This document shows positions 1-47,258 of a DNA stretch of 64,000 nt, in pieces. The notes under the pieces are model-generated. The model saw only the letters and a list, made by a program, of their open reading frames with translations. It had not been told where the DNA came from and searched no databases. The stretch is from contig OY760175.1 in assembly GCA_963663165.1 (NCBI GenBank), positions 3,520,001 to 3,584,000 on the forward strand. Reading direction: 5' to 3'. Source of the stretch: an uncultured Desulfospira sp. (GTDB lineage: Bacteria > Desulfobacterota > Desulfobacteria > Desulfobacterales > Desulfobacteraceae). The position numbers and the translations under genes were made by a program. Every line of letters begins with the position of its first letter. Positions within the stretch are counted from its first letter, which is position 1.

Positions 1-3000
1 GCATGGCCCGCACCGTGTAATCCCCGGATTCACCGGACAGGGGGGTAAATGCATAGGAAAACTGTCCGCTGCTGTCGGTGATGACGGTGTCGGTCCGTTC
101 AAACCCGCTAACGTCGATTTCCAGCCGCAGGGGCACAAAGGCCATGGGGCTTCCGGAATCTCTTTCAATGGCCTGCCCCTGGATGATAATATCCTGGGCC
201 CCGTCGGAAAGGGCAGGGTCAACCTGCCGCAGGGTACCATAATAAGCGGTATCGGCCAAAGAGACATCCTCAACGGCAGCGGGCCCGTCCATGCGCACCG
301 CCTGGCCGGTACCCAGGGCATAATGGACCTGGGCGATATCAAGCCTGAGAACGGCATTGTCCGGGCAGGTGTCGGGAACCGGCAATGCCACCTCATCACT
401 GGTAAAAGACTGCCCCGGGTCCAGGCGGACAATGGTCCGGCCATCGGTCAGGGTCACCACATCCGTCCCGGTGGCCTGGTGGAGGCAGGCCGTGGAAAGG
501 ACATTTTCTTCCGGGTCCAGCAGGGAAAAACAAACTTCATCGCTGGCCGCAGTCCCGGTGTCCCGGGCCGTGATCATCTCCATGGTTTCGTCACTGGTGT
601 TTTCCAGGGTAAAGTGGACCATGGCACTGCCGCCCCGGACCGGTTCCTCATTATAGATATTGAGCATGAAGGTGCCGTCCAGGACCTGGATACGGGAGTT
701 TTGGATAATGGAAACCCGCTCACCGGTATCGGGCTCAAATTCAATGGCAAGGGTCAGATCGGCAAGGTCGGAAAGATCCTCATATCCGCCCACGGTGACG
801 GGAACGACAATTGAAGCACCGGCCGGAATGGAAACATCCGTTGAAATATGCTCCCGGCCCCCCAGGGCCACCTTGAGCCGGACCGGTTCCACCGCGGTGC
901 TTGACAGGTTGGTGACGGTATATTCAAGGCGGTTCATCAGGCCCCTGAAAACTTGAGAATCCCCATCCAGGGCTGCCTCTATCACGGGCAGAAAAATGGT
1001 TCTGGCAAGGCTCTCCTCCCCATTGTGATCCACAGCCAGGACACGGTACAGGCGCTCATCGCCCGTATAGCCACTGTCGGTATAGGTGGTGGCGGCCATC
1101 AGGCCGTCATTGAGTTTCACCTCCCCTGAATCAAGGGTCACATAAAGGTTATATCCTTCAATGGTGCTGCCGTTGTGGGTCCATGACAGCACGGGAAAAG
1201 AATCGTCTTCCAGAATCACAGCCGGATCACTGATGGGAAGCAGATCAAAATTTAAATAAACCGCATCGCACGGCTCAGACTCGTTTCCGGCCTCGTCCAC
1301 GGCCGTTACCAGATAATAATGGGCCTCCTGGGAAGGCGTTGTATCAATGGCCGTCAGGGCAGAGATGCCGGTCAGAACGGGATCAAGGCCAGATACCGGC
1401 AAAAGCCCTGGTTCATCACACCGGTAAAGGCTGTAGGTGATCTCCTCTGTGCCGGCCGGGGCCTGCCAGGCCGCCTCGATACCCTGGGAGATGAGTTCCA
1501 GGGAGAGATCTTTTGGCGGTTGAGGCGGCGTGGCATCCGATGAGGCGGAAACCTGCGAACTCAAACCGCTTTGGGATGAATCCCCATTTTCTTCCCGGAC
1601 TGAGGCCACCGCAAAGGTGTAAAGGCCCTCTGCCGCCGGGGCGTCGGTAAAGCCGGTCTCCAGGTCACAGTCGGCATAAAAGGTTAACTGGGTTTCGTCG
1701 GGTGCCTGGCGGTAGAGGACATAGCCGGCCGCATCCTGGACCGAATTCCAGGACAGCCGGATCTCTCCGCCGGGAAGGGATGTTGCCCCAAGGCCGGCGG
1801 GAGCGGACAATGGGGGCAGATCGCCCTGGTAGACCTGGAAGGCGTTGTCACAATCGATTTCATCACTCACATTGCCCAGGTCATCATTGCCGCTAAAGGT
1901 GAATGTCAGGGTTTCGGCTTCAGCAAGGCCCGCATCTGCCGGCAATGAAAACTGGGCCTGATAAGTCTGGGCATGGCCGGCCCGGGTCGCCACAAGGGTC
2001 AGGGTGTCAATGGACACCAGCTCCCTTAGTGTTCCCGATAGAAGATAAGACAATGCGGGGACGGTTCCGTCTTCAAGGGCCTCATCAAGCCCCAGGGTCA
2101 CCTGCACCAGGACCGGTTCTTCTTCATCATTCTTTATGGGCCGGCCGGGTTCAACAATAAGTTCAATGACCCGGGGCCCCTGGGTGTCTATGGTGATCTG
2201 ATCCCCGGAACCAATGCCGGTCCCCCGGTTTCCGGCCCCATCCCGGGCGGAAAAAATGGCGTAAGCAGTTCCGTCGGGCGTCTGGTCTTCAATGGTAAAG
2301 AATCCGGTATATTCGGTGTCACCGGTCTGGGCCAGAGACACCGTCAGGGGCACGCCCCCCACTGAATTGATGCTCAAAAACGGTGTGGTCCCAAGGGTCT
2401 CGCTGACGGAGAGAACCACAGAGACCTTCCCCGGGGCCATACGCCCCGTGTCCGGATCAAATGCGCCGGACGGGGTGTAATCAATGGACAGGGCCTCAGG
2501 GGCCTCCCGGTCGCTGATCCCGGCCACCTGGTCCGAGGCAGGCCCCTGGCTGCCCGCATAGCTGACCGCTGTGATGCGGTAATAATAGGTGCCGTCCTCT
2601 GCCGGCAGATCCTCATAGGTCGTGCCGGTGACCAGCTGGGCATTGACCTGTTCTGCGCCGGCCGTATCCTCAAAGGGAGCCGTGGACCGGAAGATATAAT
2701 ACCCCTCTATAGACCCTTGCTGGGGCCGGGTCCAGGTCAGGCTGACGGCCCCGGCGGCCTTGGATTGGGCCGTGGGGTTGGTCGGGCTTTCGGGAATGCT
2801 GGTGTCCAGGGTGACCAGAACCGCATCGCATAAGGGCCCCTGCCCGGTGCGGTTGCGGGCCGCTGCCTGGATCCGGTTTTCCCCCTGGACCGTCAAATCG
2901 GCCGTAAAACTGAAGCCGCCCTGAGTGTCAACACCCTGCCATGATCCGGTCTGTTCATCGTTGATATATAGAATCACCTCGCTCCCTTCCGGGGCCGATC

Positions 3001-6000
3001 CTTTAACCGTAACCTGCCGGGTATTGGCCAGGGTTCCTGAAACCGGCTGGTCAATTACCGGGGCCACCGGGGCTGCCAGGGCCACCGTAAAGTCCTGGGA
3101 GACCGTGGTCGAATTCCCTAAAGTATCATAGACCGTGACGGTCAGAGTATGAGAGCCGTCGGTGAGTGAGGCGGGATCAATCCCCCATTGAACCACCGAT
3201 GTGGTGCTGTATGCGGTCCCGAGGACCTCGCCGTCAACGGCAAATTCCACCCGGCTGACACCGGCGGGATCTGACACCGTTACTTCGATGGTCCCCTCCG
3301 TGGTCAGGGTCTGGCCGTTTTCCATAACCGCGCCGTCAAGATTGAGACTTCCCATCTCAGGACCGGCGGTGTCGGCCAGGGGGGTTCCCGATACCGATGT
3401 CACGGTTTTGCTTTCACCGCCGGACAGATTAACGGCGGTCACAGCAAAGTAATAGGGCGTGCCGTCGGAAAGTCCGGAAATACCGGCATAGGTCTCTGTA
3501 ACCGTTGCAACGGGAGTTAAATCGGCCACACTGGAAAAGCTGCTCTCCTGGACATAGACATGGTATTGGGCCACATAAGCGGCGGGCAGGGCATCATCCC
3601 ATGCCAGGGTGACATACCCGCTGCAGGGGGTCACCGTATGAACTCCTGGGTTTTCCAGCAGGGTGTAGCCGGTCATGGAGATCCCGGTGCTTTCATTTCC
3701 CAAAGGGCTGTTGTCAACGCTTGTGATGGTAAAATTACAGGCAGCGGCCCTGTCCAGCCCTGTCTTTTCAAACTGGGTATCCCCCGGTGGAATCAGTTCG
3801 GATTCAGGCTGGCCATCAATGGAGATCCGGTAACCGGAAAGCTCCCCATAGGGATCTGAAACCGGCTCCCAGGTGAACACCAGGCGATCTTCATAAGATT
3901 CAACCGATAACTGGGTGATATCCGCCAACGGGGTGTTATCGGCCAGGAGAAAGATTTCCGCCGGGGACAGGGAACGGTTATAAATCCGGACCTCATCTAA
4001 GTCTCCTGAAAAAAAGGTATCCTGCCCGGACCGTGCCCCAACCATCAACTTAAACTGTTCCTGGATGAGCCGGCTTCCGGCTGCCTCAAGATGGATGGAA
4101 GACAGCTGGCCGTCCATATAGATCAGGCTGGCCTGGCCCTGAAGGGTCACCGCCACATGATGCCATGCCTGGTCATTGATCAGGGCATCGGCACCGCCTG
4201 AGTGGTGGTGGAAATAGCCGTCCTGATCCCCGTTGCCCATGGCAAACGAAACCTGGCCGCCGGTATCGGACGAATCCAGCTCCAGTAAAAACTGATGGTC
4301 AACAGCACTGCCGGCGTCCCCCGTCCCCAGGGCAAGAAGAGAGCCTGTCCGGCTGATGTCGTCCCGCCGGACCCATGCGGCCAGGGTCAGGTCCCGGGGA
4401 AAGGACGCCCCCACCAGACTCTCCGGTCCAACGGCCGCCCCGTCACCGTCAAAGGCATAGGCCTCGTCGCTTTGGCCATTCACATTGGCCGTCAGCTGGG
4501 CCTGGACAACGGCGGCATGAACCCCATTGCCGCTTTCATCATCGGCATTGCCGTGAAAGGGATAGTACACCGCAAGGCCTGACCCGATATCCGGTGCATC
4601 CCAGTTATAAAGGGTTTGAACATCATCAAGCTCCAGGACGCGGTTGTAGACCCTTAATTCATCTATGGCCCCGTCATAACGCGGCGAGGAATCATTATAC
4701 TGATCCCGCCCCAGGGCAAGCCCCGGTGCCAGATCCGGTGAGGCCGAAAGCGTGTCCATCATGGCGGTCCGGGTGCTGATCAGGGCGCCGTCCACATAGA
4801 GTTTCCAGACATTGGCCCGGTTGTCCCCGGTCAGCACCACATGGTGCCAGAGACCGTCATTTACAATCGGGGTCTCTTCAAACGCAATGGTGTTCACCCC
4901 GTCGAAGATGCCGGCATAAAGGCCATTGGGCGCCAGGGCATCCGGGGCATTGACCCTGATCCTTGCATAATAGGGATAATCGCCCTCGCCCCTGGAATCG
5001 TAAACCCATCCCTCGCCACCCGTTTGGACATCAGGTTTGACCCAGAGGCTGACGGCATACTGGGCATCGCCGACATCCAGGCTTGAGGCATAGGGGATTT
5101 CAAGGGAATCCGCCTGACCGTCAAAGGCCAGGGCCGTGTTCCTTGACCCGAACCGGTCATCTTCCCAATCCATCTGGCCGGACATGGCGGCGTCATTGCC
5201 GTATCCGCTGTGATCGGCGGCATCATTGTCCAGGGGCAGATAGAGCACCAGCCCGCTGTTGATGCCGGCATCCGGGATCTGGGCGGTAACATCCACCCAT
5301 AACGTCTCACTCTGGTTGCCGGCCCTGTCCGTAAGAAAGACTTCAAAAGAGTTGAGCCCTGAAACCAGGTCCAGGAGAACCACCCAGCCGCCGGACCCGG
5401 TTTCCGCCAAAGTTTCCCCGTTAATCCGGACACTGGTATCGTCTTCACGGGTGCCGGTCAGGGTGATGGTCAGGGTATCGGACAGGTTTCCGGCCGGCCG
5501 GACCTGGAGCACGCCGCTGACGGTTTCTCCCCCGGTGATGGTCAGGTTTCCGGGCGCCACTTGATCCAGGGTGAAGGAAAAGGTATGGGCCCCGCTGTTG
5601 CCCTCAACATCAACGGCCAGAAAAGAGACGGTAATCAGGCCGTCGGTGAGCGCCTGGTCCGGAACAAAGGTAAACTTATCATTGGATTCTAAAACAGTGC
5701 CGGCCACGGCCCCTGAGTTGGCATCAAGGACCGTGAAGCTTTGAATAACCGCGGTATCGTCCACCTTTGTATGGGCGTCCACAAGGGTGATCACAATCTG
5801 GTCTGCCGACTGGACAAAGTCGCCGTCACCGGGGGATGATCCCGTGAACTCGGGCGGGTCCGGATCAATGATGTCTTCCAGCGAAACAGTGATGGTGTTG
5901 TTGTCTTCCTCAGACTCAACCACACTGTCCTGGCTGTCGGCCGTCACCTCAAGGGTATGCTCGCCCGCCTGGGCTGTCCAGGTCGCACTCACCTCAACGG

Positions 6001-9000
6001 ACTGGCCCGCCGGGATGATCCGGTCATATTCGACGGCGGCGATCACGGCATTGTCCACGGTGAACTCAACGGTAAAGGCGTCCACGGCAGGACCTGCCCC
6101 ATTATTGGATATGGTGGCGGGAAAAGAGACCATGTCTTTGGGCACCACACCGGTTTGGGGCTCCTGGGAAACAGCTGAAACCGTCAGGTCCGGCGGGTCC
6201 CCCAGGGTGGTGAAGGTCCAGACCGGTCCCTGGGTTTGGGCTCCGGCATCGTCCCGGGCCGTCACTTTCCAATAATAGGTTGCCCCTGCTTCCAGATTGG
6301 ACAGGGATTGTTCGGCCGTTGAAAGCCCCTGACCATTCAATGTTAATGCGTCGGGGTCCGTCCCAAAGTAAACATCATACGTCACGGTGTCCCAGGGATT
6401 GGGATCATTTCCGGTCCAGGACAATTGAACATCTATGGCCTGGCCGTCCTGGGATGCCGGAACCCTGACGGCATTATGGGCCGGTGTGGGATTGTTGGGA
6501 ACAAAGGGGGGATCATTTTCCGCCGGCAGATCAACACAGTCTGCATGGCTGGTGAGCCAGGGATCAACATCCACATTGCCCAGGGCCTGGTCTCCTGACT
6601 GGTTGGGGCCGCCTGTATCGTTCCACCAGTTGTTTTCAGCCGTTACCGAGGCATTAGGTCCGGTGTTAAGTCCCCAATTTTTGTTTTCAATAAAGTGGTT
6701 GCTGCTGATGACGGGGTGATAGCTGGTTGTATTGACATAGACGCCATAAACGTTTTCCTTGATATTGTTGCAGTAAAAGTTTGAACTGTCACCGTAGCCT
6801 GTAAATAAAACCCCGTAGGTGGAACTGGCCCTGAAAGTATTATACCGGAGGGTGGGGCCGGCATCATAAAGCCAGATATTGGCCGTGTTGCTGTAACCGC
6901 CGTATTCCACCAGGCAGTGTTCCATGATGCTGTTATCGTTATCTGTGGCACTGTTAAAATAGATCCCCCGCCAGTCCCCCGGAGCCGGGGAATCGGCATT
7001 GGAGGTAAACACAATGGGCTCTGATTCCGTTCCCCGGGCCACCAGGGCGGACGTTCCCCCGTAAGACCCAGTGATATACAGTCCTGTACCGGGTTCAAAC
7101 TTTACCGTCACTCCGGGGTCAATGGTCAGGATGGCCAGTGAACCGGACGGCTTTAACTGGGTTGTGTCCAGGATCACCACCTCAGGCAGGGCATTACTCC
7201 AGGTGCGGTTCCCCAGGATATTCTGCCCCACCAGCTCAATACGGCGTAATCCCGACCCCGAATAGGTATTGCCGGAAAAGTCCGTGCCCGCCCCCACCCG
7301 CATGGCCGGGCTCTGGGCTCCCCAGTCCGAAAGGGTGTTGTTGGAGGCGACAGCATAGGTGTACTCGCTGTCCAGGTAGATACAATAAGTGCCGCAGCCG
7401 CTGATGGTGTTGCCGTTGTCGGCTCCGATCACGGGATTGCCGCCGCCGGTACCATAGATGCCGGCATGGCCGCAGTCACTGATCTGACTGCCTTTGATCA
7501 CCGGTGACCCGCTGTTTTGAAAGTAGATGCCGTGGCCGGCGCTGCCGGCAATAGTACAGCCGGTCACCTGGGGGGCGGAGTAATAATCCAGATAAAGACC
7601 GTTTGAACTGTTTTCTTCAATCCGGCAGTTTTCTATGGCCGATGAATTTTTATACCCCCTGAATCCGTTCCCACTGCTGTACCGGATGGTGCAGTTATGG
7701 ATGGCGGGGCTGGAATTACTGGCATAAACATTGGCATTGTTGGTGAGCCCTGCGTATTCCACCACACAGTATGCCAGAAGACATGCATCGTCATCTGCGG
7801 TATCGGCAAAATAAATCCCCAGCCAGTCCCCGGGGGCCGGGCAATCGGTATTGGAGGTAAATACAATGGGCTCTGATTCCGTGCCCTGGGCCACCAGGGC
7901 GGACGTTCCCCCGTAAGACCCGCTGATATACAGCCCCGCGCCCGGATCAAACTTTACCGTTACCCCGGCTTCAATGGTCAGGGTAGCCGTTGTCCCGGAC
8001 GGTTTTAACTGGATTGTGTCCAGGACCACCACCTCGGGCAGGGCATTGCTCCAGGTGCGGTTCCCCAGGATATTCTGCCCCACCAGCTCAATACGGCGTA
8101 ATCCCGACCCCGAATAGGTATTGCCGGAAAAGTCCGTGCCCGCCCCCACCCGCATGGCCGGGCTCTGGGCTCCCCAGTCCGAAAGGGTGTTGTTGGAGGC
8201 GACAGCATAGGTGTACTCGCTGTCCAGGTAGATACAATAAGTGCCGCAGCCGCTGATGGTGTTGCCGTTGTCGGCTCCGATCACGGGATTGCCGCCGCCG
8301 GTACCATAGATGCCGGCATGGCCGCAGTCACTGATCTGACTGCCTTTGATCACCGGTGACCCGCTGTTTTGAAAGTAGATGCCGTGGCCGGCGCTGCCGG
8401 CAATAGTACAGCCGGTCACCTGGGGGGCGGAGTAATAATCCAGATAAAGACCGTTTGAACTGTTTTCTTCAATCCGGCAGTTTTCTATGGCCGATGAATT
8501 TTTATACCCCCTGAATCCGTTCCCACTGCTGTACCGGATGGTGCAGTTATGGATGGCGGGGCTGGAATTACTGGCATAAACATTGGCATTGTTGGTGAGC
8601 CCTGCGTATTCCACCACACAGTATGCCAGAAGACATGCATCGTCATCTGCGGTATCGGCAAAATAAATCCCCAGCCAGTCCCCCGGGGCCGGGCAATCGG
8701 TATTGGAGGTAAATACAATGGGCTCTGATTCCGTGCCCTGGGCCACCAGGGCGGACGTTCCCCCGTAAGACCCGCTGATATACAGCCCCGCGCCCGGATC
8801 AAACTTTACCGTTACCCCGGCTTCAATGGTCAGGGTAGCCGTTGTCCCGGACGGTTTTAACTGGATTGTGTCCAGGACCACCACCTCGGGCAGGGCATTG
8901 CTCCAGGTACGGGTCCCCTGAATATTCTGCCCCACCAGTTCGACCCGGCGAAGGCCCGTACCGGAACAGGTATTGCCGGAAAAATCCGTGGCCGCCCCCA

Positions 9001-9949: not shown

Positions 9950-10093
9950 GCTCGCTCCTGTCTCTTATCTGCCCGGAACCGTTCAATTTTCCTTGCCAGC
10001 AAACTATCATACGCGCTGGGCCACAGGATCCGACAGCGTTCAGTACAATTTTTCAGCGGTTGTGCGATATTTACCGTATCCTTATCGAAACAT

Positions 10094-10465: not shown

Positions 10466-10491
10466 CTACGTTAACTGTATTTAGAAACCCT

Positions 10492-11058
10492 TTAGAAAAG
10501 CGTCACGTCTCCAGGTTCATCAATTTTCTTTTTCAGGAGTTCGAGTCTCTTTTTTTCTAAGGCGGCCATGGATTTTTTGGCATTGATCCGCTTGAGGAAG
10601 ACCTCGCCGGTGTCTGTATGGAAATATACCTTTCGGGTATCGGTTCCGCCAAAATCCCGGCTGACAATCTTGATTTTTTCATTGGCCAGAAAGTCTGTGA
10701 CAAAATCAATAATTTTCTGGCCTACAGCAGATTCTTTTGAAATGGATGCAATGACATTGCCCCCGCCAAAGGTTTTGGCCACCAGGTTCTTGCGTTTTCC
10801 CCCAAGCTTCATGATCCCGTTGATCAGAAGCTCCATGGCGTTGACCCCGTAGCGGGCCGAGGCGTCAAATTTGCCCAACTGGGGCTCTCCGGGCATGAAA
10901 ATATGGTTCATGCCGCCGATTTTGTTTTCAGGGTCCCGCAGGCAGACAGCCACACAGGAGCCTAACACCGTATGAATAATCACCCCGTCCCGGCTGGCGT
11001 AATATTCACCGATACCGATGTTGACCAGTGTTTTATCGTCTGTTATCGGGTCAGGCAT
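10492..11058 (-). CDS. cheD: Chemoreceptor glutamine deamidase CheD
   Basis: [38 protein letters not shown] and DFGGTDTRK motifs. Confidence 0.95.
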
Positions 11059-12113
11059 TGTTGCAGGACAGCCGCGGTCAATTTTTCAAGGGGAAGGATT
11101 TTGTCAACCCCCCCCATTTTGATGGCCTCTTTGGGCATCCCGAAGACCACACAGGTGGCTTCGTCCTGGGCAAAGGTATAGGCCCCGGCATTTTTCATTT
11201 CCAGCATGCCCCGGGCCCCGTCATCTCCCATGCCCGTCATGATCACGCCCACGGCATTTTTACCGGCATACCGGGCCGTGGACCGGAACAGGACATCCAC
11301 CGAGGGGCGGTGGCGGGAGACCAGGGGACCCTGGCGGGTTTCCACAAAATATCGAGCCCCGCTGCGCTTGAGGATCATGTGCTGGCTGCCCGGGGCAATC
11401 AGGACCCTTCCCCGCAGGACACTGTCGTTGTTTTCAGCCTCTTTGACATTGACCTTGCTGATGGAGTCCAGCCGGTCGGCAAAGGTTTTGGTAAATTTCT
11501 CGGGCATGTGCTGGACAATCACCATACCCGGGGCGTCATGGGGCAGTGCCTCGATAAAAACCCTTAATGCCTCGGTGCCGCCGGTAGAGGCCCCCACAGC
11601 GACAATTTTTTCCGTTGTTTCGACCATGGCCCGGGTGCCGGGTTCGGGCAGCACCGCGTCTGCAGTCAGCTTGGGTTCAACTTTCATGGGCTTGGAAATT
11701 TTCCTGGGCGTTGCCATGGCCGCTGCTTTAACGGCATCGCAGATTCTGATTTTGGATTCCTCAAAAAATTGTTTGGCCCCCAGATTGGGTTTCTCGATAA
11801 TTTCCACGGCACCGTATTCCAGGGCCTTGAATGCCGTCTGGGTTCCCTGGCCGGCCAGGGTTGAGCAGATCACCACGGGAATGGGATGCTGGCTCATGAT
11901 TTTTTTTAAAAATGTAATCCCGTCCATCCTGGGCATTTCAACATCCAGGGTAATCACATCCGGTGTCTGCTCACGCATCCTGGATGCAGCCACAAACGGA
12001 TCTGATGCCATTCCCATGATTTCAATGTCAGGGTCCGATGAAAGAACTTGCGAAAGTGCATTTCGGACCAGGGCCGAATCGTCTACAATAAGAACTTTAA
12101 GTTTCTTACCCAT
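11043..12113 (-). CDS. cheB: Chemotaxis response regulator methylesterase CheB
   Basis: N-terminal receiver domain (VDDS, LDVEMP) and catalytic motifs [28 protein letters not shown] 12113 chosen; the track uses GTG 12125. Confidence 0.97.
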
Positions 12114-12219
12114 GCTTATTCCCACCCCATTATGTGGATATCCACAGTCAAATTAAAACAACCCGTCTTGTTTTTCCTTTTTATAAAACTGAACCCAAGC
12201 CCGTTTTTAAGGCCATGAT

Positions 12220-13092
12220 TCAGCCCACCTTCTGATAAACTGTTATTTCCGGGGAAACCAGGGGAAAATCGTCGATCTGGAGAACCTCGGAATGTCCCAC
12301 AAACAGATACCCGCCTTTTTTAAGATGTTTCAGCATATTATGAACCAGCGCCGTCTGGGTCTGCCTGTCAAAATAGATCATGACATTTCTGCAAAAAATA
12401 ATATCCACCTGATCCACCATGGGATAGGACCTGTCCATGAGGTTCAGCCGGTGAAATTTCACCTTGGACCGGATATTGGGGGCGATTCTGACCAGATTTT
12501 TGCTGCTGTCCTTGCTGCGCAGCAGATATTTTTTGCGCAGGTTCAGGGGCACCGGTTCAATCTCGTCATGATCATAAACCGCTCTTCTGGCAATACTGAG
12601 GACTTTGGTGGAAATATCCGTACCCACAATATCAAAATAAACCTTTGTACCGTTATGGGTTTCAGCAAATTCATTCAACACCATGGCCAGGGTATAGGGT
12701 TCATGCCCTCTGGAACAGGCGGCGCTCCAGACGGACACTTTTTTGGCTCCCATGGGAGAACCCGAACCAAGCAGATTGGGAAGCGCTTTCTGGGATAAAA
12801 ATTGAAAATGGGCCGATTCCCTGAAAAAATCGGTTTTATTGGTGGTGATCACATCAAGGAATTCGCTTAATTCTTCTTTCATGCCTTCCGGGCTGAACAG
12901 ATAGTCGCAGTATTCCTCGTAAGTTTTCAGTTTAAGCAGGCTCAGCCGCTTTCGTAGCCGGGATTCCACCATCACCCTTTTGGCTTCGGGCATTTTAATC
13001 CCTACCTTGGATTTAATAAAGGTGGACAGCTTTTGAAAATCCTTCATGGACAGGGTTTGAAGGTGAAAGGCGGGCGCTTCTTTTTTTTTCAT
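12220..13092 (-). CDS. cheR: Chemotaxis methyltransferase CheR
   Basis: TTNKTDFFRE, WSAACSRGHEPY, GTDIS, IFCRNVMIYF and GHSE motifs. Confidence 0.96.
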   Translation of the reverse strand: MKKKEAPAFHLQTLSMKDFQKLSTFIKSKVGIKMPEAKRVMVESRLRKRLSLLKLKTYEEYCDYLFSPEGMKEELSEFLDVITTNKTDFFRESAHFQFLSQKALPNLLGSGSPMGAKKVSVWSAACSRGHEPYTLAMVLNEFAETHNGTKVYFDIVGTDISTKVLSIARRAVYDHDEIEPVPLNLRKKYLLRSKDSSKNLVRIAPNIRSKVKFHRLNLMDRSYPMVDQVDIIFCRNVMIYFDRQTQTALVHNMLKHLKKGGYLFVGHSEVLQIDDFPLVSPEITVYQKVG

Positions 13093-13125
13093 GGGACAGT
13101 TGCTCTCCTGGCTGTGAATTCACAA

Positions 13126-13680: not shown

Positions 13681-13736
13681 TGGAGTTCCTCCTTTTGAAC
13701 ATCATTTTTTCAAGGCTGCCGGGCCAGGGGCAAAAC

Positions 13737-15854: not shown

Positions 15855-15909
15855 ATGCGCACTCCTTTGATCAACCTGGTGGCAGGGACCTTATGTCCCA
15901 CATTATTAA

Positions 15910-16275: not shown

Positions 16276-16286
16276 GTCACGTCTCC

Positions 16287-16589: not shown

Positions 16590-16613
16590 ACCGTATCCTC
16601 ACTTACGTAAGCG

Positions 16614-21137: not shown

Positions 21138-21139
21138 GG

Positions 21140-29836: not shown

Positions 29837-29846
29837 AAAAACAACT

Positions 29847-33258: not shown

Positions 33259-33374
33259 AACATACCCCCATAATGTTGATGTCACTAATAAATGAAATAG
33301 TATACATTGATGACTGTTAACGCACTCTTTATGATAATAAATCCCTTTTTTAGGTTCAAGGCAGCCAAAGGCGG

Positions 33375-36065: not shown

Positions 36066-39000
36066 TTAGAATGAAACACTGGCACATCCCCCGGCAGAGC
36101 AGGACAAGGCCCCTAAATCCACACTGCCGTCAAATCCAAGTATGGTTCCTGTCGCACAGTTGCCGGTCACATTTGAAGGCGGAAAAGGCTTTAGGGGAAT
36201 GTCCACAGAGCAGCTGACAGGGCCGAAATTACATGAGCCGTACAGTTTAGCCGACCCCTCGGCTTCCTTTGGACAGCATGTGGTCTTCCCAACACCCATC
36301 AGCGGGCGCCATCCCGGCCCGGCAACACCAACGCAGGCAGCGATACACGCCTCAATGGTAATGACCTCGTCCATTTGCATGGTTTCACAATCACAGCACT
36401 CTTTGGCTTCAAGCTTTCCACTGATCTCAAAACCGGCCAGCCCCATGACCGGCATACACCCGGTAGATCCTTGAAAGCCGGCACTGACACTTCTCGTGCC
36501 AAAGGGATCGATTTTATTGCCGGGGTTGGCATCGGCATACACATAATAATTGATATCAATGTCCGAAAAAGCGCCGAAGCAGGTTTTACCGGCCCGGTAA
36601 TTGCCGACAACCGGACGGTTCCCCAATCCCAACGGATCCGGCTGCAGATACCGGCCGGTTGACGGATCATAATACCTGAAATAATTGTAATGGAGCCCGG
36701 ACTCCTCATCCCTGTAGTGCCCGGGCAGCCGCAGCGGGTTGGTAATGGTAGACCCCGCATCCACCCGGGCCGTCCCATAGACATCATAATCCGCCGACCA
36801 TACCGTTATTCCGTTGATATCCGTCATCTTGACGGGTTTTCCAATCCGGTCGGTATGGTAAAAAAAGCAGTCATCGCCGGTTCTCATAAAGACAGGGTTA
36901 TAAGAGTTCATGGTCCCGGGAACATAACCATAGGTGCGGATAAAATCGCCGTCATCATCACATTCCCCCACCAGCCCTTCATCGGCATAGATGAAAAAGG
37001 TGTTTACCCCGCCAACCTCTTTGCTGATGCGCCGGCCAAAAGGATCATAACCGTATGCGGCAATCTCACCGGCTGAATCGGATTGAATCTTGATCAACCT
37101 GTTTTCATGATCATAGGTGTAGTAGAATTTATCTGTGGCGGTTTCTTTTGAAGCCACATTTCCATTGGCGTCATAGGTGTAGGCGGCACCATCGCCGGCC
37201 GTCAGCTGGTCATTGGTATTATAGGCCCAGGTTCCCGGTGACATCCGGTTGTTCATGCCATCAAAGGTGTATTCGGTGATTCCTCGGGCAGGATCATCCA
37301 CCCGGACCAGGCGATACAGGTTGTCATACGCATAGGAAACCGTTCCGGCCAACGATGATATGGAGGTCACGTTGGCCTGGTTATCCAATTCATAGCCAAG
37401 ATCCATCACCGACGTTCCGCCCGGGTCTTTGGCCGTAATGGCCTTGGCCTGGTTGAAGGCATCGTATTCAAATTCTTTCAGGGTTCCTCCCGGCAGCAGG
37501 ATGCTGGCGGGGCTGGACCATTCATAGGCGTTGTAAGAGACAATCCCCGCATCCGGAATGGAGATGGTGCTGATCCGGTTGTCTTTGGTATGGGTGTAGT
37601 CAACCGTTATTCCGTCGGGGCCGGTAAAGCTTTTGACCAGTCCATTGCCGTAATACGCATACGCATAGGTCTTGGTAAAGGAACCATAATGCACAGTCGC
37701 GGAGGTTTTCTGATGGGCCCGGTCATATGTAAATTCTGCGGACAGGGTTCCGTCACTATAACCGGTCATGTTCCCGCCCATATCCCAGGTAAAGGTCACG
37801 GTTTTAGACGCAGTTGTTTCACCGGCATTGATATAACGGATGGCCGCCAGTTTATTAACGGCATTGTAATCATATGCCGTAACCTGTCCTTTGGCATCGG
37901 TCCGGCTTGCCAAATTTCCGTTCTCATCATAGGTATACGTGGTTTCCTGCCCGCCAGGCCGGGTTTCCTTAACCAGCCGGTTGTTCAAATCGTATTCAAA
38001 GGCAGTGGTGTGTCCGTTGGCATCAGTTAAGCCGGTCATGTTTTTTTGTTCATCATAGGTATAGGAGATACTGGTCCCGCCGGGCCGGATTTCCTTAACC
38101 TTTCTTCCCACAGCGTCATATTCATAGCTGGTGGTCAGGCCGTTCATGTCGGTAACGGCAGTGACATTGCCCGTCTCATCATACTCGGTGGTCCGCTCCC
38201 GGGCGGCTGTGCCGTCAAGGGGTTCATACCGGTCCCTTATTTTCCGGCCCAGGCGGTCATAATCCTGGCCCACTTCCATGGTGGGATACTGTATCACTGA
38301 CGGCTCCCCGGTTCCCGAACCGGAGCAGGCCGGGCATCCCACCGCCGAATCCTGGTCATATTCAAAAGTGGCCTGCTTTCCGGCGGAGGTGCCTTTGGAA
38401 ATCAACCGGCCCAAATTGTCATACCCGAAAACCAGATAGCTCCCCTCAGCATCGGTCTGCTGAAGGACCTTGCCTTCGAAATCGCGCTGATAAACGGTTT
38501 CGTTCCCTAAGGGATCGGTCTGTTTGACCAACCGGTCCTTGATGTCATAGGCAAATTGAACCACACCGCCCAGGGGATCGGTCTGCGTTGTCCGGTTGCC
38601 CACGGCATCGTATGTATAGGTAATCACATTGGGCTCGGATTCATCTTCCGAAGGACCGGTTTCCGTTATCAAATTGCCGGCATTATCGTATTCGTACGTC
38701 CAGGTATTTCCCCGGGGATCGGTTTTGGTCAGGGGCATGCCAAGATAGTTGTGGGTGTAAGTTGTTGTATTCCCTTCCGGATCAGTGCTTGAGGTCATAT
38801 TCCCGTATCCATCGTATGCCATTTCTATGACGCTGTCCGGCACGCTCTCATCTCCCATCACAGTGGTCTGTTTTAACTCATTGCCGTATTCGTCATAGGT
38901 GAACTCGTGGATAATCTCATCATCGGTTCCCGGGGCCTGGACCCGCCGGGTCAGGTTCCTGTCGTCATCATATTCATAGGTGACCACGGTTCCGTTCTTT

Positions 39001-42000
39001 TTGACCCGTCTGACTTTTAATTTGGTGGCCGGATCATACTCGGTTTCTTCCACGGACCCGTCAGGATAGGTCTTTTTGATCAACTGGTTCCATTCATCAA
39101 ATTCATAGATGGTTTTATATCCCCGCTCATCGGTTTTGATCCGTTTCCGGTTCCCGTATACATTTTCCTCAATGGTCGTCCCGTTGAGGTCTGTCCGGGT
39201 CACCCGCCCGAGTTCATCATACCAGATTTCCTTTACCCGGCCGTTGGGATAGGTCACCATGGCGTAAATCTCGTTCTGGGCATCGTTCTGGGCATAGCTG
39301 TAGGATGTCCGGTTGCCCTTGTCGTCGACAATGGCCGAAACCCAGCCAAAGGCATTGTATTCCATTTGCGTGGTCCGCCCGGCCGGGTCGGTCTTTGAAA
39401 TCATCCACCCGTTTTCATCATAGGTATACTGGAATGTATTTTCCAGTACATCCGTGACCTGGGTGAGCCGGCCGTCGGCATCATAATCATAAGAGACCTG
39501 CCGGCCGTAACCGTCTTCGACAAGTTTCACCTGTCCGTCTGCGGTATAGTCATACCAGAGAACGGCATTTCCCTTATTGTCTTCGATATGGGAAAGCCGG
39601 TCCGGATCGGTGCTGTCATACACATAGGTAAAATAGGTCTGATCATGGTTTCCCCTGGTTTTAACCCGTCCCTCAAGATCATAACGGATCCAGTTTTCAA
39701 GCTTATCTTTCCATAAAAAGCCGTCTGCGTCCCTGAAGATATGCTTGACCTTATTAAAGGTGTAGACGGTTCCCAGGGCGTCGGATTTTTCGTATTTCAC
39801 CCCGTCTTTTGAAATGGTGTAGGGAATGGAAGCATTGGCTGAATCATAGTTGAGCCCCAGCACCGACCCCACATTTTTAAAGTGCCATTCCTGGTCATAG
39901 TAATACCGGCGGACCGCCAGTGTCTCCCCCGGAATCTTCAAAAACAGATCAACCTCATCATCCTCGTAATCACCGCTCATCAGGTTGACGTAACTGGCCA
40001 CCTCATCTCTGGCAAACTCTTTGCAGCACTCGTCATCCACTTCGCACACCGCAACGATTCTGCAAATCACACCAATGGGAATTTCTTCCGGCGGGGTGTA
40101 ACTGGTGTCGAAGCCTGTAATGGTAAATCCTGGCCCGCCACTGCTGTCACCGGGCTCCGCCGCAAAATTAAAGCAGTCGCCGTCAATATAGACAAACCGT
40201 ACACACCGGACTTCTTCCCAGACACTGCCATTGGTACATTCAAACAAATACCACAGGCAGGTTTCATCCCCGTAGCTGAAGCAGTCTCCCCCGGCACCCT
40301 CATCGTTTCCGGTGAGGCTGGCAAGACAGGTGACCCGGTAAGGAACCGTTATGGATTCCTTGGCTTCAATGGTGTCCGGGATATTGGCCAGAAGCTCATA
40401 TTTAAAATACTCATTGGACTCGGGCAACGTAAACTCAATCTCTTCAGCCCGGATCAGGCCGTAATTGGTAAACCGGATTTCACCGGTGAGCACATCGCCG
40501 GGTTCCATATCCGGCAGGGTAATGGACGCGGGCTCGGCAATGACAACGGCTGCCGGCACATCGGTCTCGTAAGTGGCGTTTAACACCACCTCGTATTTGT
40601 CTTGAATACTGGTCTCCACCACGGACCACTCCACACTGACCAGGTTGTACCCCATGAACACGTCTTCAGTGGCGGTAATGTCCGGTTTGATCCAGACCCG
40701 CCCAATGACCTGGTCATGGTTATCCGCAGTCAAACGGTATTTATACCGGCCTGTGGGAAGGTCTGAAAAGGTAAGCTCACCGTATTGGTCGGTTTGACCG
40801 CTGTAGGTCTGGCTTGTATCGGCTTCATACGCCAAGGTCAGGTTTGCACCGGCAAGCCCCTGAATCACTTCGTTGTTCTCGTCTTTGGTGCCGGTATAAA
40901 TATCCGACACCTTGAACAGGATATTTCCAATCCCGGAATCGGACACCGTCACCCTAACCGGGATATCAACCGCGGTGTAGTTGGAGCTGGTCACCCTGAC
41001 ATAAAAATCATAGTCCCCTTCAGCAGCACTGCCGTCTATGGGGGCAAAAACAACGGATAAATCCATGCTTTCGCCAACGTCAAGGGCGTCCACTCCCGAG
41101 GGCTGGTTCAGCAGTGCCCAGTCCGGCACCGGGGTATCATCCTGGGTGACCAGTTCAATGGCCAGATCCGTAAGCCGGATAAACCCCTGGTTTTCAAGGG
41201 CCAGATTTTCGGTCACACTGTCATCCAAGGCCACGCTGGTTTCAATGGCGCTGGGGGTATAGGAAAGGATGGGACCCACATCGGTGAGCCCGATATCCAC
41301 GGCAAGGGTTCCCAGGCTTCCGTCCGGCTGTTCATCGCTGACCAGGGTAAGGGTCAAAGACAGGGTCTCTTCGGCCGTGTTATCGGCCCACAGGCTGATG
41401 GTGATGGTCCCGGTTTCCCCGGCACCAAGGCTTGAAAGCCCATCGCCCGTATCCACATGAATGCCCTGGGGGATATCTGATGCTTCAAATGCCAGGTGGG
41501 TGGCCGAAGCCGCCTCACCCGCCGTAAGGGTGACCACGATATCCCGGGTATAGTTCCGGGCCATGGTCAGTTCATAGCTTCCCGGTGTAAAGGTGATCCG
41601 GGCGGTGTTTGGATCCGTGATGGTAAAACTGCCCTGAACAGGGCGGTCCCTTAAGTCCGGATGGATAACGCAGACCTGGTATTCCCCGTATTCGCCCTCA
41701 CTGGGTTCAAAGGGATAGGAAAAGCAGCCGTCACTGCCCGTAAACACATCAACGGTTCTCTCAAACCCGTCCAGGGTAATGACCAGGGTCAACGGGACCT
41801 CGGCCAGGGCTGCCCCGTCATTTCGGTCCACGGCCTGACCGGTGATCACGATATCCTGATCACCCAGGGATTCATCGGGGTCAATGCTTAACAGTTCACC
41901 GGTATAGGCCGTATCCACCAGGGTGATGTCCCGGCCGGTTTGCACCCCGTCCATTTCCACGGCCGGATCTTCTCCCAGGTGGTAATAGACACTGCTGATT

Positions 42001-45000
42001 TCCAGGGTCAGTTCAAGTTCATCCGGCGCATTGGCCGGCACATCAATGGCCATGGCCTGGGATTCAAAGCGGTCGCCGGATGCAATCCGGGCCACGGTCC
42101 GGCCGTTGGCAAGCTTGACCACGCTGCTGCCCAGAACCTGGGTATAAGTTCCCGTGGAAAGGATGTTGCCGTCTTCATCACTGAGGTACAGGGTGATGTC
42201 CAGGGAAGCGCTGCCGTCGGATTCAGCGGTAACGATCTCGATTTCTTCATCCCCGGTATTTTCCAGGGTAAAGGCAATCTGGCCCGTACCGCCCCGGACA
42301 AACTCGTTATTGGTAAAGGACAGCTGGAGCATGCCGATGCCCACGCTGATTTCACTGTTGGTCCCGATTTGGACCAGTTCCCCCTCATTGGGGGTGATCT
42401 CAATTGCCGAATAAAGGGCGGCCGTATCGGGCAGGTCACTGTATCCGCCGACCACCACCGGCACGGTTAAGGACTGTCCGGCCCCAAGGTCAAAGCTTTG
42501 GGACACATGCTCAACCCCTTCCACGGTGACCCTTAAGACGGCATCTGCCACATCAGAAGACCCGCTGTTGGTCACGATGTAGTCAAGCCGGTTCATCAGC
42601 CCGCGTCTCAGGCTTGCATCTTCGCCCAGGGTGGCCGTCATCAGCGGCAGGACAATGCTGCGGCCAAGGCTCTGCTGGCCATCGGTATTTTCGGCAAAAA
42701 CCGTATACCGCCGTTCACTGCCGTCAAATGTCTCATCGGTAAAAACGGATGCCGTCACCAGGGCGGTGTTAAGCTGTACGGCACTGCCCTCGGGTCCCTG
42801 GTAGATATCATAACCCGCGATACTTGACCCGGAATGGGTCCAGGAAATCTCCGGATTGCCATCATCCACCCGGATCACCGTCAAGGTTTCAACGGGCAGC
42901 AGTTCAAAGTCAAGGTAACCCGTCCCGGACGGGACAGACTCGTTACCGGCCTGGTCCACCGCCGTCACCGCGTAACAGTGGTGGCTGGCCGATGGGCTTG
43001 TATCTATAGCTGCGATACCCTCAATTCCTGTATGGACGGACACCAGTCCTTCAACAGAATTAAATACGGTGTTGGCGTCCCCGGCACCCCGGTACAGGGA
43101 ATAGGTAAGGGTCTGTGTTGAAGCGGATACCGATGGGGTCCAGGCCGCCTGTATCCCCTGGGGGGTCAGGGTCAGGGTAAAGTTGGTCGGCGCGTCCGGC
43201 GCTGTGGCGTCAGAGACAACGTTAATGGGGTCACACATATCGCTTTGGGCTGTCTCGCCGTTTTCATGGCGCAGGCTGGCCAGGGCATAGGTATAGGTGC
43301 CTTCTGTTTCAGGCTCGTCTGTGTATTCCGTAACCGCACCCAGGGTTGCCAGCTCGGTCAGTTCCGATTCCCCGGGAGCCATGCGGTAAAGTTTATACCC
43401 GGATGCCAGGTCCACGGCATCCCAGGAAAGCTTTATCTTTCCAAGGGGCAGTCCGGTGCCGGTGAAGTTTTCGGGCACATCCAGGGGCGGCAGGTCTCCC
43501 TGATAAACCTGAAAAGTATTGGCTGCGGTAATTTTGCCGGACAAATTGTCCAGATCATCCACAGCTGAATAGGTAAACTTCAGGGTTTCGGCCTGGGCTT
43601 CTCCGGCATTGGCCGGCAGGGTAAACGCGGCCTGCCAGGTCTGGGCATGGCCGTCCATGGTGCTGATCCGGCTGATGGCGTCAATAGTGACCGGACTTGC
43701 CTGTGTAATGGAAAGGGTATAGGCCAGTGCCGGCGCCTGTCCGTCTTTAACGGCTTCGGTCAGCCCGAGTACAACCGTTATATCAACAGGTTCAACCGGA
43801 TTAGTTCCCTCTTTTTCGTTCTTTACAGGGGCCCCGGGGGTTATCCGGATATCCGCCAGGACCGGGCCGTCCGTGTCAATGGTTACGGAACCGCCTGAAG
43901 CGATACTGTCCCCCCGGTTCCCGGCCTCGTCTTTGGCTGAGAATACGGCATAGGCCGTGCCCGTGGGCGTATCTGAATCAATGACAAACAAGCCGGAGTA
44001 GACCAGGTCGGAATCCTGATCCAGGTCAACGGTCATGGGAACGGCCCCCACCGGGTTAATGCTCAGGAAGGGGGTGGTGGCAAGGGGTTCGCTGACCCTA
44101 AGGGTCAGGTAGACAATCCCGGGTCCCATGCGGCCGGTACCGGCATCATAGGGACCGGTGGGCGAGTATTCAATGGACACAGCCTGAGGGGCCACCCGGT
44201 CCGATCCCCCTGACACCACACTGGACAACGGGCTTTCATTGCCGGCATAGTCCACGGCTGTAACCGCATAATAATATATTCCGTCCTGTCCGGGCAGGTC
44301 TTTATACAAGGTTGCCGTGATCAGGCCCGTATTGAGCAAAGCGGCCTGGCCTACAGTCGTAAATGCTGAATCCGACCGGTAAAGGTGATACCCCGCCACC
44401 GTGGTGTCCAGGGGCTTGCTCCAGCTAAGGGACACAACGCCCGAAGCCTGGGACTGGGCTTTAAGGTGTTTGGGACTTTCAGGAACGGAGCGGTCCAGGG
44501 TTACCGTAATAACGGCACTCAAAGGCCCGGCCCCTTTCCGGTTAACCGCTTGAAAGGTCAGCTCATTGTTTCCGTCCGTCAGGGTCACCGTACCTGAAAA
44601 GCTGCCGTTAAAGGCACTGAGGGTGGCCGCAAGGGTGCCGTTCTGGTAGACTTTCACGGATGTGACGTCTGCTGATACGGTTCCGGCAACCGCCAGTATG
44701 GGATTGCTGGTGGTCAGGCCTGAAACCGGCTGGGTAACATTCGGGGCATCGGGCAAAGAAAGTGCCAGTTCCCCGGTAAAGGTTTTCTGGGATGAATACC
44801 CGGTGGTGGAATGAACCGCCACACGCAATTCAAAATCGCCGTCCGTCAGGCTGCTCACCGGCACAACCCCGCTCAATCCGTCACCGGCCGAGGTATCCTG
44901 GGCCAGCAGGCGCCAGGCGCCATCCGGCAGATCCCTGCCGTAAATATTGGCCATGGCAATGCCGTCTGCATCGGCAGCGGTCACGGCAACGGTTACGGTT

Positions 45001-47258
45001 GCCGTTGTAAAGGTAAATCCGTCACCCAGCGCCGCCCCCTGGGCCGTAACACCGGTGATCACCGGAGACAGCCTTAAGGTGTAGCTTGCTTTTGCCGGCC
45101 AGTAATCCTCATTGCCGTCCTGGATGGCGGTCACGGTAACGGGTCCGCCCTGAAGCACGGTGAAGATATCTGAATCAACCGTGGCAATCGATGTGTTGCT
45201 TGACACAAACCGGACTAAAAGCCCGCTGGTGGCCGTGGCGGTCAGTGCAGAACCAGCAACCGGTTCGGTAAAATTGACGGTTTGACTTTCTTTGGTTCCT
45301 GAAACCGAGGACACCGCCGGATTCAGACCGTCAGAAACATTAACGGCGGCCACGGCAAAATAATACCCTGAAACATCCGAGATGGTGCCCAGGGATGCCT
45401 GGGTACCGGACAGGGTTGTCACAGGCGTCAGGCCGGTGACATCTACAATGGGTGAACTATCTTTGTAAACCGCATAATATTGCAGCAGGCCTGAAGATCC
45501 TGCCGCATCCCAGGTCAGATAGACGTTATCGCCGTCAGCGGTAATAGAGACATTTTCCGGATTGGCAAGCCAGGTGGCACCGGTAACGGAGTTGCCTTGA
45601 CTCTCATTGCCGAACTTGTCCACCGTGGTGATCTTAAAGGGATACCCGGTGGCTGCGGACAGGTCTGTCGTCGTCCAGGATGTCTGGTCTGCGGCCAGCG
45701 TAAGCGGCTCGGTGCTGCCGCCAAAATAAATCAGATAATGGGATAAGAATGATCCCGCCCCTTCAGGGGGATCCCAGGTAAAGGTAAGGCTGGTTTCATC
45801 GCTTTGGACCGCCAGGTTGGAAACCTCTCCCACACCGGACACCGATGTCAGGCCCGAGCGGGCATAGACCGTGGCATTATAATTGCCCATTGCGTCTTTG
45901 GCCACCACGGCAAAATAGCGGATGGCCCCACCGGGCAGACCGGAAAGGGTATACTGCTGAATACCCGCCCCAACTGAGGCAAAGGGGACCATGCCGGTAA
46001 CGTCCGTAAAAAATGCGGTACTCACATAAATATCATATTGCAGCACATCCAGCTGGACCGCCTCTTCATAACTGCTCCAGTCCAGGATCACCGCGCTGTA
46101 TTCGTCAGAAGCGGTTTCTACGGAAAAACCGCTGTCGCTGCCCGTGACCGGGTCCGGCACCGCTGAATCCGGGGTAAGGATGGATGCGGCCCGGGATATG
46201 ATCTCTTGGAACGGTATGGGCTTTTGGTTGCCGGTGAACAGTGACACTTCTCGGGAAATTACCTGGGGACTAAGCACATATGAGGCTGAATACACAACGG
46301 TTTCGTTATAGTTGCCCAGGCCGTCTACGGGCACCACGGCAAAATAATAATCGGTGAAGGCGGTCAGCCCTTCAAGGGTGACAGAGGTACTCTCTGCCGA
46401 GACACTGACCACGGAAAGTCCTTGTGCCGGAACCGTGTCAAAGGGGCCGTCGCTGGTGTAATAGATGTCAAATCGGGTAATATCCGCCTGGGACCACTGG
46501 TCATAGCTTTCCCAATCCAGGGTGACCGTACTGCCGTCACCGGAGACGGTGATCACCGGATCATCCACGATGTCCGGGGGATCGTTTGTAACCGAGACAA
46601 TACTCACCGATCTTGACACCGGCGAGCTTAAGGCGACATCCCTGGGCCCTGCATCAACAAACAGGGTCATTTCCCGGGAAACCACCTCGGGGCAGAGTAC
46701 ATACCCGGCCGCGTATGAGACATCGGGGTCTGAATTGCCCAGACCGTCCACGGGCACCACCACAAAAAAATGATCCGTAAACTCGGGCAGATTTTCAATG
46801 GTAACGGTTGTGGTTTCAGCCGATACGGTGATGGTGTTCAGGCCTTCGGCATTAAGATCGGTAATGGGGCCGTCGGATGAATAATAGATCACAAACTCAA
46901 CAACATCCCCGACAGACCACTGGTCATAGCTGCTCCAGTCCAGAACCGCCGTATCCCCGGTGGGGGACAGGGTAACGTCAAGGTCTTCTATAGGTGCGGG
47001 CGCCGTGCTGTCTACATTTAACAGCCCCACACTCCGGCTTGTGATTTCACGGATTTCATCGGGCCGGCCATTGGGAACAAACAGGGACACCTCTTTGGAA
47101 AAGACCTCATTAATTCCCGGGCCTTTCTCAAATCTGATGATACTGGTTTCCCTGGAAAAAACCTCCTTAATCAGGATGGTTTCATCGGCAAACCCCTGGG
47201 CCGTAAGCCCGTACAAAAGGGCAAAAAAAGCGACTGCGGCAAGAACAAACCGGTGCAT
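36066..47258 (-). CDS. Giant Sec-exported FN3/Ig-RHS (YD-repeat) protein, 3730 aa, with RHS core and 143-aa Cys-rich C-terminal domain
   Basis: Signal peptide [24 protein letters not shown]; many FN3 repeats; DUF6531-like VNLMSGDY...LAVRRYY; YD repeats; core [37 protein letters not shown]...[10 protein letters not shown]. Confidence 0.95.
   Translation of the reverse strand: [3730 protein letters not shown]

Follow-up and report, generated by a model that had tools for sequence, protein, structure and literature searches.

The window analysed here is a 64,000-nucleotide stretch of the genome of an uncultured Desulfospira sp. (contig OY760175.1, positions 3,520,001 to 3,584,000). It carries two genes for giant RHS-repeat proteins on its minus strand, together with a gene for a smaller partner protein, and we propose that giant and partner are the two chains of a surface assembly. 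The left giant enters the window with its 5′ part (1–9949). Read in the genome, its open reading frame (ORF) starts at 9949, ends at window position −5731 and encodes 5226 amino acids, which make up an N-terminal hydrophobic signal-like segment, a head, a stalk, an RHS shell and a 129-residue tip. The right giant (36066–47258, 3730 residues) begins with a Sec-type signal peptide, as judged by eye, and the gap between the two genes (9949 to 36066) is 26.1 kb. BLASTP aligned residues 476–3587 of the right protein with residues 2008–5097 of the left one at 38% identity over 3239 columns (2050 bits). The alignment starts at window positions 45833 and 3928, respectively, where the initial annotation had placed a collinear core (about 45830 and 3930), and all eight shared peptides that it quoted are present in the translations.

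When the alignment was divided into bins of 150 columns, identity was 42–55% for right residues 884–1928, 24–40% in the shell and 12% in the tip. Pfam gives merely scattered FN3/Ig matches on residues 884–1928, and no NCBIfam family was found on residues 1481–2380. The likeness thus goes beyond generic FN3 similarity, and the stalk is a specific conserved region, which extends over roughly 1900 residues. At the DNA level, identity between the two genes is patchy (67–82%, in pieces of at most 330 bp) and bears out the old divergence suggested earlier.

The right stalk (39999–45833) consists of FN3, Big and carboxypeptidase-regulatory-like domains and ends in a Cys-rich hairpin and a Gly-rich linker. 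The start of the left stalk (FN3/Ig; 1–3928) is collinear with 45833–41650. A profile search of the PDB with the stalk alignment matched only FN3/Ig-type (318–682) and RHS-core (2070–2193) positions. The β-hairpin at the stalk end (residues 2205–2236; 40551–40646) is the modelled docking element for the partner and is kept in the left giant. Two stalk cysteines, Cys2341 and Cys2399, are at least 90% conserved. The RHS/YD shell and core of the right giant follow at 36498–39998. RHS repeats score 288 bits against PF05593 in both giants and 187 and 218 bits against TIGR01643, and the RHS-associated core (TIGR03696) scores 62.9 and 80.3 bits against a cut-off of 32.5. The RHS region predicted to lie just left of the window is indeed there (RHS_repeat 288 bits, Rhs_assc_core 80 bits), and domain scans of both giants support the modular architecture of head, stalk and RHS shell. 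Both Asp motifs of the autoprotease type are present before the tip in each giant. An NHL propeller before the YD shell is a feature of teneurin-like proteins; Pfam gives no NHL family ahead of the YD shell here, and the segment at that place is the Cys hairpin with the Gly linker. Scans with Pfam and NCBIfam also found no PAAR/VgrG families in the giants, whose N-termini are hydrophobic and signal-like.

The partner gene (33375–36002, minus strand) encodes 875 residues and follows the right tip after 63 nt. Its product has a signal peptide (by eye), an N-terminal domain (N-domain), an Ig domain, acidic repeats and a dockerin-like tail. The N-domain (34620–35918) has no Pfam or NCBIfam family, and its nearest Atlas clusters are nameless. 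Its size as a family makes this noteworthy: the N-terminal 433 residues match 2825 cluster representatives at E≤0.001 and 1797 at 1e-30 (clusters at 50% identity). The hosts include sulfate reducers, Pseudomonadota plasmids, cyanobacteria and Verrucomicrobiota, and the closest named relative is a metagenome-assembled genome of an uncultured Desulfospira sp., whose partner is 92% identical. The model of the N-domain shows three β-sandwiches with a predicted local distance difference test (pLDDT) value of 94.9. Its fold neighbours are generic single β-sandwiches (best Z 8.0, root-mean-square deviation (rmsd) 2.3, 96 aligned). One Cys close to the N-terminus is invariant in 81 of 81 aligned sequences. 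It is also found in 48 of the 50 partners from this genome and the fetched loci, the exceptions being a solo partner of this genome and its orthologue in another genome of the genus (G213).

The stalk end and the partner domain are part of one polypeptide in Nostoc, in a T9SS-sorted protein and in L019, L020, G202 and G198. In P0198, P0223 and L173, the partner domain is fused behind the RHS end or before the stalk, which shows that the parts can be rearranged in other orders. Three stalk-end/partner units occur in P0174, a protein of 7485 residues with a C-terminal transmembrane segment and polybasic furin-like insert sites (both by eye). Since P0174 looks eukaryotic by eye, it suggests that the unit also exists in animals.

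We modelled the complex of right residues 2105–2425 with the partner N-domain. The interface score ipSAE was 0.90 in three runs, and the best of three controls gave 0.01. The runs had at least 92% of their contacts in common, and the pLDDT of the partner was at least 88. The 0.90 mark was reached by 116 of 157 solved pairs and by 2 of 215 mismatched pairs, a rough calibration in which own alignments were used. In the model, the hairpin 2205–2236 lies antiparallel to partner strands in 4–34 and 250–264. The model supports binding of the partner N-domain by the predicted stalk-end hairpin.

Behind the N-domain, the tails of the partners vary freely (dockerin-like, PEP-CTERM, MYXO-CTERM). The window partner ends in dockerin-like repeats (PF00404, 29.5 bits against a cut-off of 22.9) and has no transmembrane segment; a cohesin-annotated gene is present in the Methylomonas locus. 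A tail of this kind would also suit a secretion chaperone or cap that binds the stalk end during export, the complex then being released to the medium or matrix, and most partner tails are, by eye, without a recognisable membrane sorting signal. Seven partner homologues were picked by eye for a sorting-like end, however, and one PEP-CTERM and one MYXO-CTERM match were above the cut-off among them, along with two choice-of-anchor U matches. At the ends of fused forms, too, there is a T9SS sorting domain or, by eye, a transmembrane segment or an RTX-like end. We therefore regard a chaperone as a doubtful account of the partner and prefer an anchor.

Three gene families that the initial annotation had missed belong to the system: a transglutaminase-like enzyme, a rhodanese-like protein and a glycine-rich β-helix protein. 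We searched 301 genomes of the class, many of them fragmented, for the partner, the stalk (with at most three candidates scored per genome) and the enzyme subfamily (E≤1e-40). The partner N-domain was found in 47 genomes, the stalk in 42 and both in 37. The enzyme subfamily is present in 38 of the 301, all of them among the 47 with the partner. Of the 45 enzyme matches, 31 are located upstream of a partner match at a distance of no more than 600 nt, and 41 have a partner match within 30 kb. Among the fetched loci, the genes most often follow each other in the order enzyme, partner, rhodanese-like, giant. In 27 of 36 enzyme copies, a pattern search detected all three Cys-His-Asp motifs; truncated ORFs and variants of the pattern are among the copies that it missed. 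The C-terminal Cys motif was found in 22 of 27 rhodanese-like copies. This genome has three loci with a Transglut_core gene of 296–320 residues and an N-terminal hydrophobic segment, and all three copies match PF01841 with 75–83 bits. One rhodanese-like homologue is encoded elsewhere in the genome.

Of 251 genomes from a second phylum, 12 have the partner, five the enzyme and three both; in two of these three, the genes are adjacent. The other two enzyme genes stand beside a rhodanese-like gene with no partner in the fetched DNA. On plasmids, all five records with the partner also carry the stalk, adjoining or fused; three plasmid records make up the coverage of Pseudomonadota. A fully split form is found in Eleftheria terrae, where a β-helix protein, a glycine-rich protein, a 2121-residue stalk, a 1529-residue RHS protein and an ankyrin protein precede the partner, and a type II secretion system (T2SS) cluster, a rhodanese and a transglutaminase follow it. 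In Methylomonas, the order is giant, rhodanese, transglutaminase, partner. As a separate observation, a further gene family follows the rhodanese in four loci of the Hint class described below and also stands ahead of the Methylomonas locus (copies at L094:2053–2979, L060:3705–5378 and L021:37052–38092; the one copy scanned has no Pfam match).

The two giants could, in principle, be ordinary unrelated RHS paralogues with a generic FN3 likeness and no system around them, since RHS proteins of large size that carry Ig domains along with signal peptides form a known default class in the passages of PMC3482391 that deal with them. The stalk identity of 42–55% outside the FN3 matches and the coupling of enzyme and partner genes refute this. 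The coupling is tight in two phyla and on plasmids, and the fusions and the complex model both agree with a system. We give the idea practically no credence.

What follows the hairpin and the Cys/Gly segment differs among loci, and the position can be described as a cargo slot. In the first form, a helical insert runs into the partner domain within a single chain. In the second, an insert precedes a Hint domain at the C-terminus, which has Cys1 and, by eye, lacks a terminal Asn, and the partner and the rhodanese are separate genes. This form is RHS-less and was seen at six loci in two phyla (G001, G012, G255, G213, G442 and G536). The third form carries an RHS shell, either fused or encoded by the next gene, and a fourth, in G258, is split and has neither Hint nor RHS. 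No enzyme gene was found in the fetched DNA of the six Hint loci, at which the rhodanese is kept. Five of the six Hint genomes have partial generic enzyme matches (E 1e-9 or weaker) or none, and the enzyme of G213 is at RHS loci. The single-chain genomes G202, G198, G303 and G304 have no match to the enzyme subfamily; G110 departs from this, having a fused gene and, on a different contig, an enzyme gene. As it was not found at the Hint loci or in those four single-chain genomes, the enzyme is not needed for docking and tracks the RHS shell. Gene distribution suggests that it may do at the RHS joint what Hint does in cis, by an acyl-enzyme cut or transfer.

Both cross-linkers and proteases belong to the transglutaminase fold family. 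The enzyme might accordingly play no part at the RHS joint: it could form isopeptide cross-links, which would make the stalk stiffer or attach it to the envelope, or it could be a non-specific passenger. The enzyme gene is usually adjacent to that of the partner and not to the giant, and the enzyme persists without a giant in G022 and G266, as such a role would allow. It was not found with Hint-type and single-chain architectures, though, despite the same stalk and partner domain, and we consider a cross-linker or passenger rather unlikely.

This genome encodes six full giants (3730–5454 residues), three orphan stalk-RHS cassettes and six partners. Five partners adjoin a giant and one is solo; tblastn found none near the left giant. 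The three orphans, with shorter fragments, lie behind the 4787-residue copy at 88–98% DNA identity, interleaved with insertion-sequence-like ORFs and small hydrophobic genes. The window loci have no such cassettes. Named homologues of the stalk are mostly from Desulfobacterales. In a stalk tree (FastTree, 130 rows, midpoint root, rows with X or with fewer than 600 aligned residues left out), the right giant is 0.50–0.59 substitutions per site from three distant copies and 1.68 from the left giant, which is on a long branch. The initial annotation had called the two giants a paralogous pair: they are homologues at 38% identity, and they are not each other's nearest paralogues. The tree rules out a local duplication as their origin, and their 26-kb proximity looks incidental; having no clade test, the tree does not tell duplication and transfer apart.

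A second partner gene had been predicted to the left of the window, and it is absent by ORF listing and tblastn. In G213, a genome of the same genus, the position of the left giant holds only a 638-residue head remnant, with no stalk match. Given this remnant and the lack of a partner after the stop, the left giant is, as far as sequence can tell, a dispensable, partnerless copy. With its hairpin retained, it could dock on a partner made in trans. The data do not support the solo partner (1557 residues) as its cognate: that protein lacks the invariant Cys, has its own long branch and persists in G213, where the left giant is reduced to the remnant. This solo protein (L007, G000:C1:1394819–1399492) has no neighbouring giant, is conserved in G213 and may have another ligand.

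The right tip (36069–36497) has 143 residues with 13 Cys and is 39–46% identical to the tips of two other copies, so that one 13-Cys tip type is common to three copies in this genome. It has no Pfam match, no Atlas match above 0.80 (best 0.80) and no homologue, which is weak evidence; the left tip has no Pfam match. No immunity gene stands behind the right tip. For about 500 nt after the stop of the left giant, there are only ORFs of at most 72 residues, and beyond these, left of the window, lies a probable solute-binding-protein gene (by eye). One of the seven tips in this genome has a family, phospholipase A2, and it is an orphan tip. Fifteen tips from other loci gave one SLT and one PT-HINT match above the cut-off and one weak CHAP match; the other 12 have no family. 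Tips are unrelated across the family, and small genes stand behind several of them, some with signal-like N-termini (by eye). No reliable tip swap was seen among the contigs aligned at the locus.

Judging by the enzyme-type tips and small downstream genes of other members, the family as a whole probably acts as a polymorphic toxin system. No sign of this is seen in the window copies, which are probably unarmed or self-harmless versions. The same data can be read with adhesion first: the giants would be adhesins for biofilm or partner cells, the tip on their RHS shell would, in this genome, serve structure or signalling as it does in animal teneurins, and toxin tips would form a side branch of the family. 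The heads are adhesin-type domains, RHS-less versions exist, one disulfide-rich tip is held constant in three copies instead of varying, and neither window copy has an immunity gene behind it. Such a reading has more difficulty with the orphan array in this genome, which combines the phospholipase A2 tip with small downstream genes, and with the SLT and Hint-released tips that are followed by small genes in other members. An adhesin is compatible with an anchoring partner and differs from the toxin reading over the cargo only. We take it as a serious possibility, though not as the one that we favour.

The heads of the two giants are unalignable except for two weak FN3-level matches (BLASTP, E about 5e-6 and 5e-5), and the composition proposed for each from the outset holds. 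The left head begins with a β-helix region (6590–9796; Pfam Beta_helix and NosD) made of 852-bp internal repeats that are 86–92% identical in a BLASTN self-comparison; CARDB, Ig and two LamG (Laminin_G_3) domains follow at 3950–6193. We noted that recent 852-bp tandem repeats (92% identical) have enlarged this head and that the G213 remnant has fewer of them. In the right head (45834–47186), FN3 domains alternate with five ExxSRExS-type motifs, located by a pattern search. Of the 11,616 ORFs of this genome, 15 contain one such motif; two or more are present in the right giant alone.

The glycine-rich β-helix and Ig protein, called GLY here, is encoded 39 nt upstream of the right giant (47298–48785, minus strand). 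Its model (pLDDT 94.7) shows the β-helix and the Ig domain, and the best structural match is a TPS β-helix (Z 10.2, rmsd 3.0, 139 aligned). In metagenomic loci, 32 of the 47 genes next downstream of GLY homologues contain an ExxSRExS-type motif; the 47 come from 75 loci and are those in which 300 nt or more follow downstream and the next ORF could be called, several loci being from one dataset. The pairing of GLY with ExxSRExS also occurs ahead of stalk-partner fusions in L019 and G110. As the pairing recurs ahead of other architectures, the right head would be a second, separable module, and it is plausibly a multivalent docking site for GLY. Donor-strand completion by ExxSRExS would call for a missing strand in the Ig domain of GLY, and none is obvious in the secondary structure of the model.

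Taken together, these data point to a two-chain, Sec-exported and surface-anchored system for RHS display and toxin delivery, in which the giant is the chain of stalk and cargo. We think that this reading is probably, though by no means certainly, right. Giant and partner would be exported through Sec, judging by their signal peptides, which were recognised by eye. They would probably leave the periplasm through the T2SS, because a T2SS cluster adjoins the Eleftheria locus and gsp homologues are found elsewhere in this genome (gspG, gspE and gspF homologues cluster at 0.53 Mb). In the model, the stalk-end hairpin pairs into the first two β-sandwiches of the partner, which would rebuild the unit that is fused in other phyla, and the invariant Cys of the partner may lock the joint by a disulfide. 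The interchangeable tail of the partner would hold the assembly on the cell or matrix, and the head, likewise interchangeable and placed at the other end of the stalk, would bind a surface or a neighbour. At the joint, the RHS shell would enclose the tip, freed by the RHS aspartyl autoprotease; the motifs are present, and the mechanism is that of the family. Many tips of the family would be antibacterial enzymes with a small gene behind them. Gene distribution further suggests that the RHS-bearing joint is matured by two proteins: the transglutaminase-like Cys-His-Asp enzyme, which is tethered to the membrane, and the rhodanese-like protein, which has a C-terminal CxxC. For the action of the enzyme, we would guess first at a cut in the Gly-rich linker and next at acyl transfer. 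Enzyme and rhodanese for the window locus would come from the copies located elsewhere in the genome.

Several observations weigh against this two-chain assembly. Where two chains are halves of what is elsewhere a single protein, likeness alone can be enough to pass the complex test. The modelled interface contains no Cys from the stalk chain; Cys2341 and Cys2399 both fall outside its confident part, which leaves the disulfide with the partner Cys a matter of inference only. The surveyed genomes are related, so that the counts are not independent and no p-value is given. G022 and G266 (97% and 100% complete) have partner and enzyme with no stalk match, and G251 (200 contigs) has an RHS giant and a partner with no enzyme match. 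No T2SS genes were found beside the loci fetched from this class. Five of the six full giants have no immunity candidate, either between tip and partner or after the tip, and no family was above the cut-off for six of the seven tips of this genome and 13 of the 15 others.

A more far-reaching version starts from the cargo slot. It holds that an ancestral one-chain surface protein was split at the slot, between the docking hairpin and the three-sandwich base, and that the slot takes a helical insert, a self-cleaving Hint or an RHS shell. The enzyme would replace Hint in trans and, through an acyl-enzyme cut, act as a protein ligase that joins the stalk to the partner or RHS chain. The product would be a covalent, T2SS-exported toxin fibre whose head can also be decorated by several β-helix subunits on the ExxSRExS motifs. 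We consider this version as a whole unlikely. The complementary distribution of Hint and enzyme may nevertheless point to new protein-ligation chemistry.

LapA/LapG also combines a giant surface protein with a periplasmic cysteine enzyme of the transglutaminase fold. LapA is secreted by a type I secretion system and held by its own N-terminal module, and LapG belongs to the BTLCP family. The enzyme described here differs in having Transglut_core (PF01841), an extra N-terminal domain and a membrane anchor, and its presumed substrate is Sec-exported and bears RHS. The Hint of the RHS-less class, with Cys1, no terminal Asn and a position at the cargo slot, is like the Hedgehog-type and bacterial intein-like Hint domains; here, however, it stands at the end of a bacterial stalk and the partner is a separate chain. 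Rhs effectors from type VI secretion systems (PDB 8h8b, 7q97 and 8qjc) share the RHS core and the autoprotease motifs, whereas the giants have a signal peptide and a stalk and no PAAR/VgrG domain in the scans.

The closest described relatives are Sec-exported. The T2SS/Sec class of RHS polymorphic toxins (Zhang et al. 2012, PMC3482391) is alike, in the passages that describe it, in signal peptide, RHS repeats, variable C-terminal tips, orphan cassettes and Hint-released tips. Compared with those passages, the present system has a conserved stalk whose heads can be swapped, a separate chain as its predicted anchor and genes of its own for the enzyme and the rhodanese, and it has no immunity gene at the window copies. 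The transglutaminase domains mentioned in the relevant passage of PMC3482391 are fused and inactive, unlike the separate gene with an intact triad found here. Bacterial teneurin-like proteins, as presented in the parts of PMC13018210 that concern us, are alike in their Sec-exported YD shell, variable adhesion heads, polymorphic tips and unknown delivery. According to the same parts, they are anchored by their own N-terminus (lipoprotein or S-layer), have a TIP domain and almost always an immunity gene behind. In the present family, by contrast, no NHL match precedes the shell and anchoring is predicted to be by a second chain.

Neither a second anchor chain nor a separate active transglutaminase-like gene is described in those sections of PMC3482391 and PMC13018210, and the module is likewise not described in the consulted sections of PMC10553843, PMC13274458 and 10.1101/2023.11.21.568195. 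In the full-text literature within reach, which leaves out subscription papers and supplements, no description of this module was found. This is apparently a widespread bacterial surface system that has so far gone undescribed. It would work like a surface-displayed RHS toxin or adhesin, and it is the two-chain anchoring and the accessory enzymes for which we found no description. How Gram-negative Sec-exported RHS proteins are held and reach their target is an open question, stated as such for the teneurin-like class in the part of PMC13018210 that treats delivery. The present system offers a testable answer, with a separate anchor chain, a modelled docking interface and a dedicated enzyme, and compact loci are available in the culturable hosts Eleftheria terrae, Methylomonas koyamae and Nostoc PCC 7120.

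The remaining features of the window concern its neighbouring genes. A small PEP-CTERM-like gene (32752–33378, minus strand, probable start 33258) lies behind the partner, with an NF033554 match below the cut-off. It is uncertain whether it belongs to the same operon: a terminator scan gave 18 against 19.1, which is chance level, and the promoter/terminator scan is thus uninformative on this point. Directly behind the run of giant, partner and PEP-CTERM-like gene, two overlapping ORFs (29984–32686), the longer of which has no Pfam match, are probably an insertion sequence, because the depth of contigs rises to about five times the locus level at its edge. A chemotaxis cluster (10492–18413) is found directly upstream of the left giant on the same strand, with CheA- and MCP-like genes by Pfam and CheB-, CheD- and CheR-like genes by eye. 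Elsewhere in the genome, a second, unrelated RHS family forms tandem arrays (G000:C1:1769214–1800911 and 3245552–3254804); its proteins have 1955–2765 residues, about 25% identity and the shell only, and they stand outside this system. Just left of the window, behind the stop of the left giant, we noted a 93-bp element (L001:4041–4133). Copies of it with 88% identity occur at five other places: four lie among the orphan RHS cassettes, and the fifth is at 0.91 Mb, close to a fragment of the stalk. The element may mark the end of a mobile element, or it may be a scar left by recombination.

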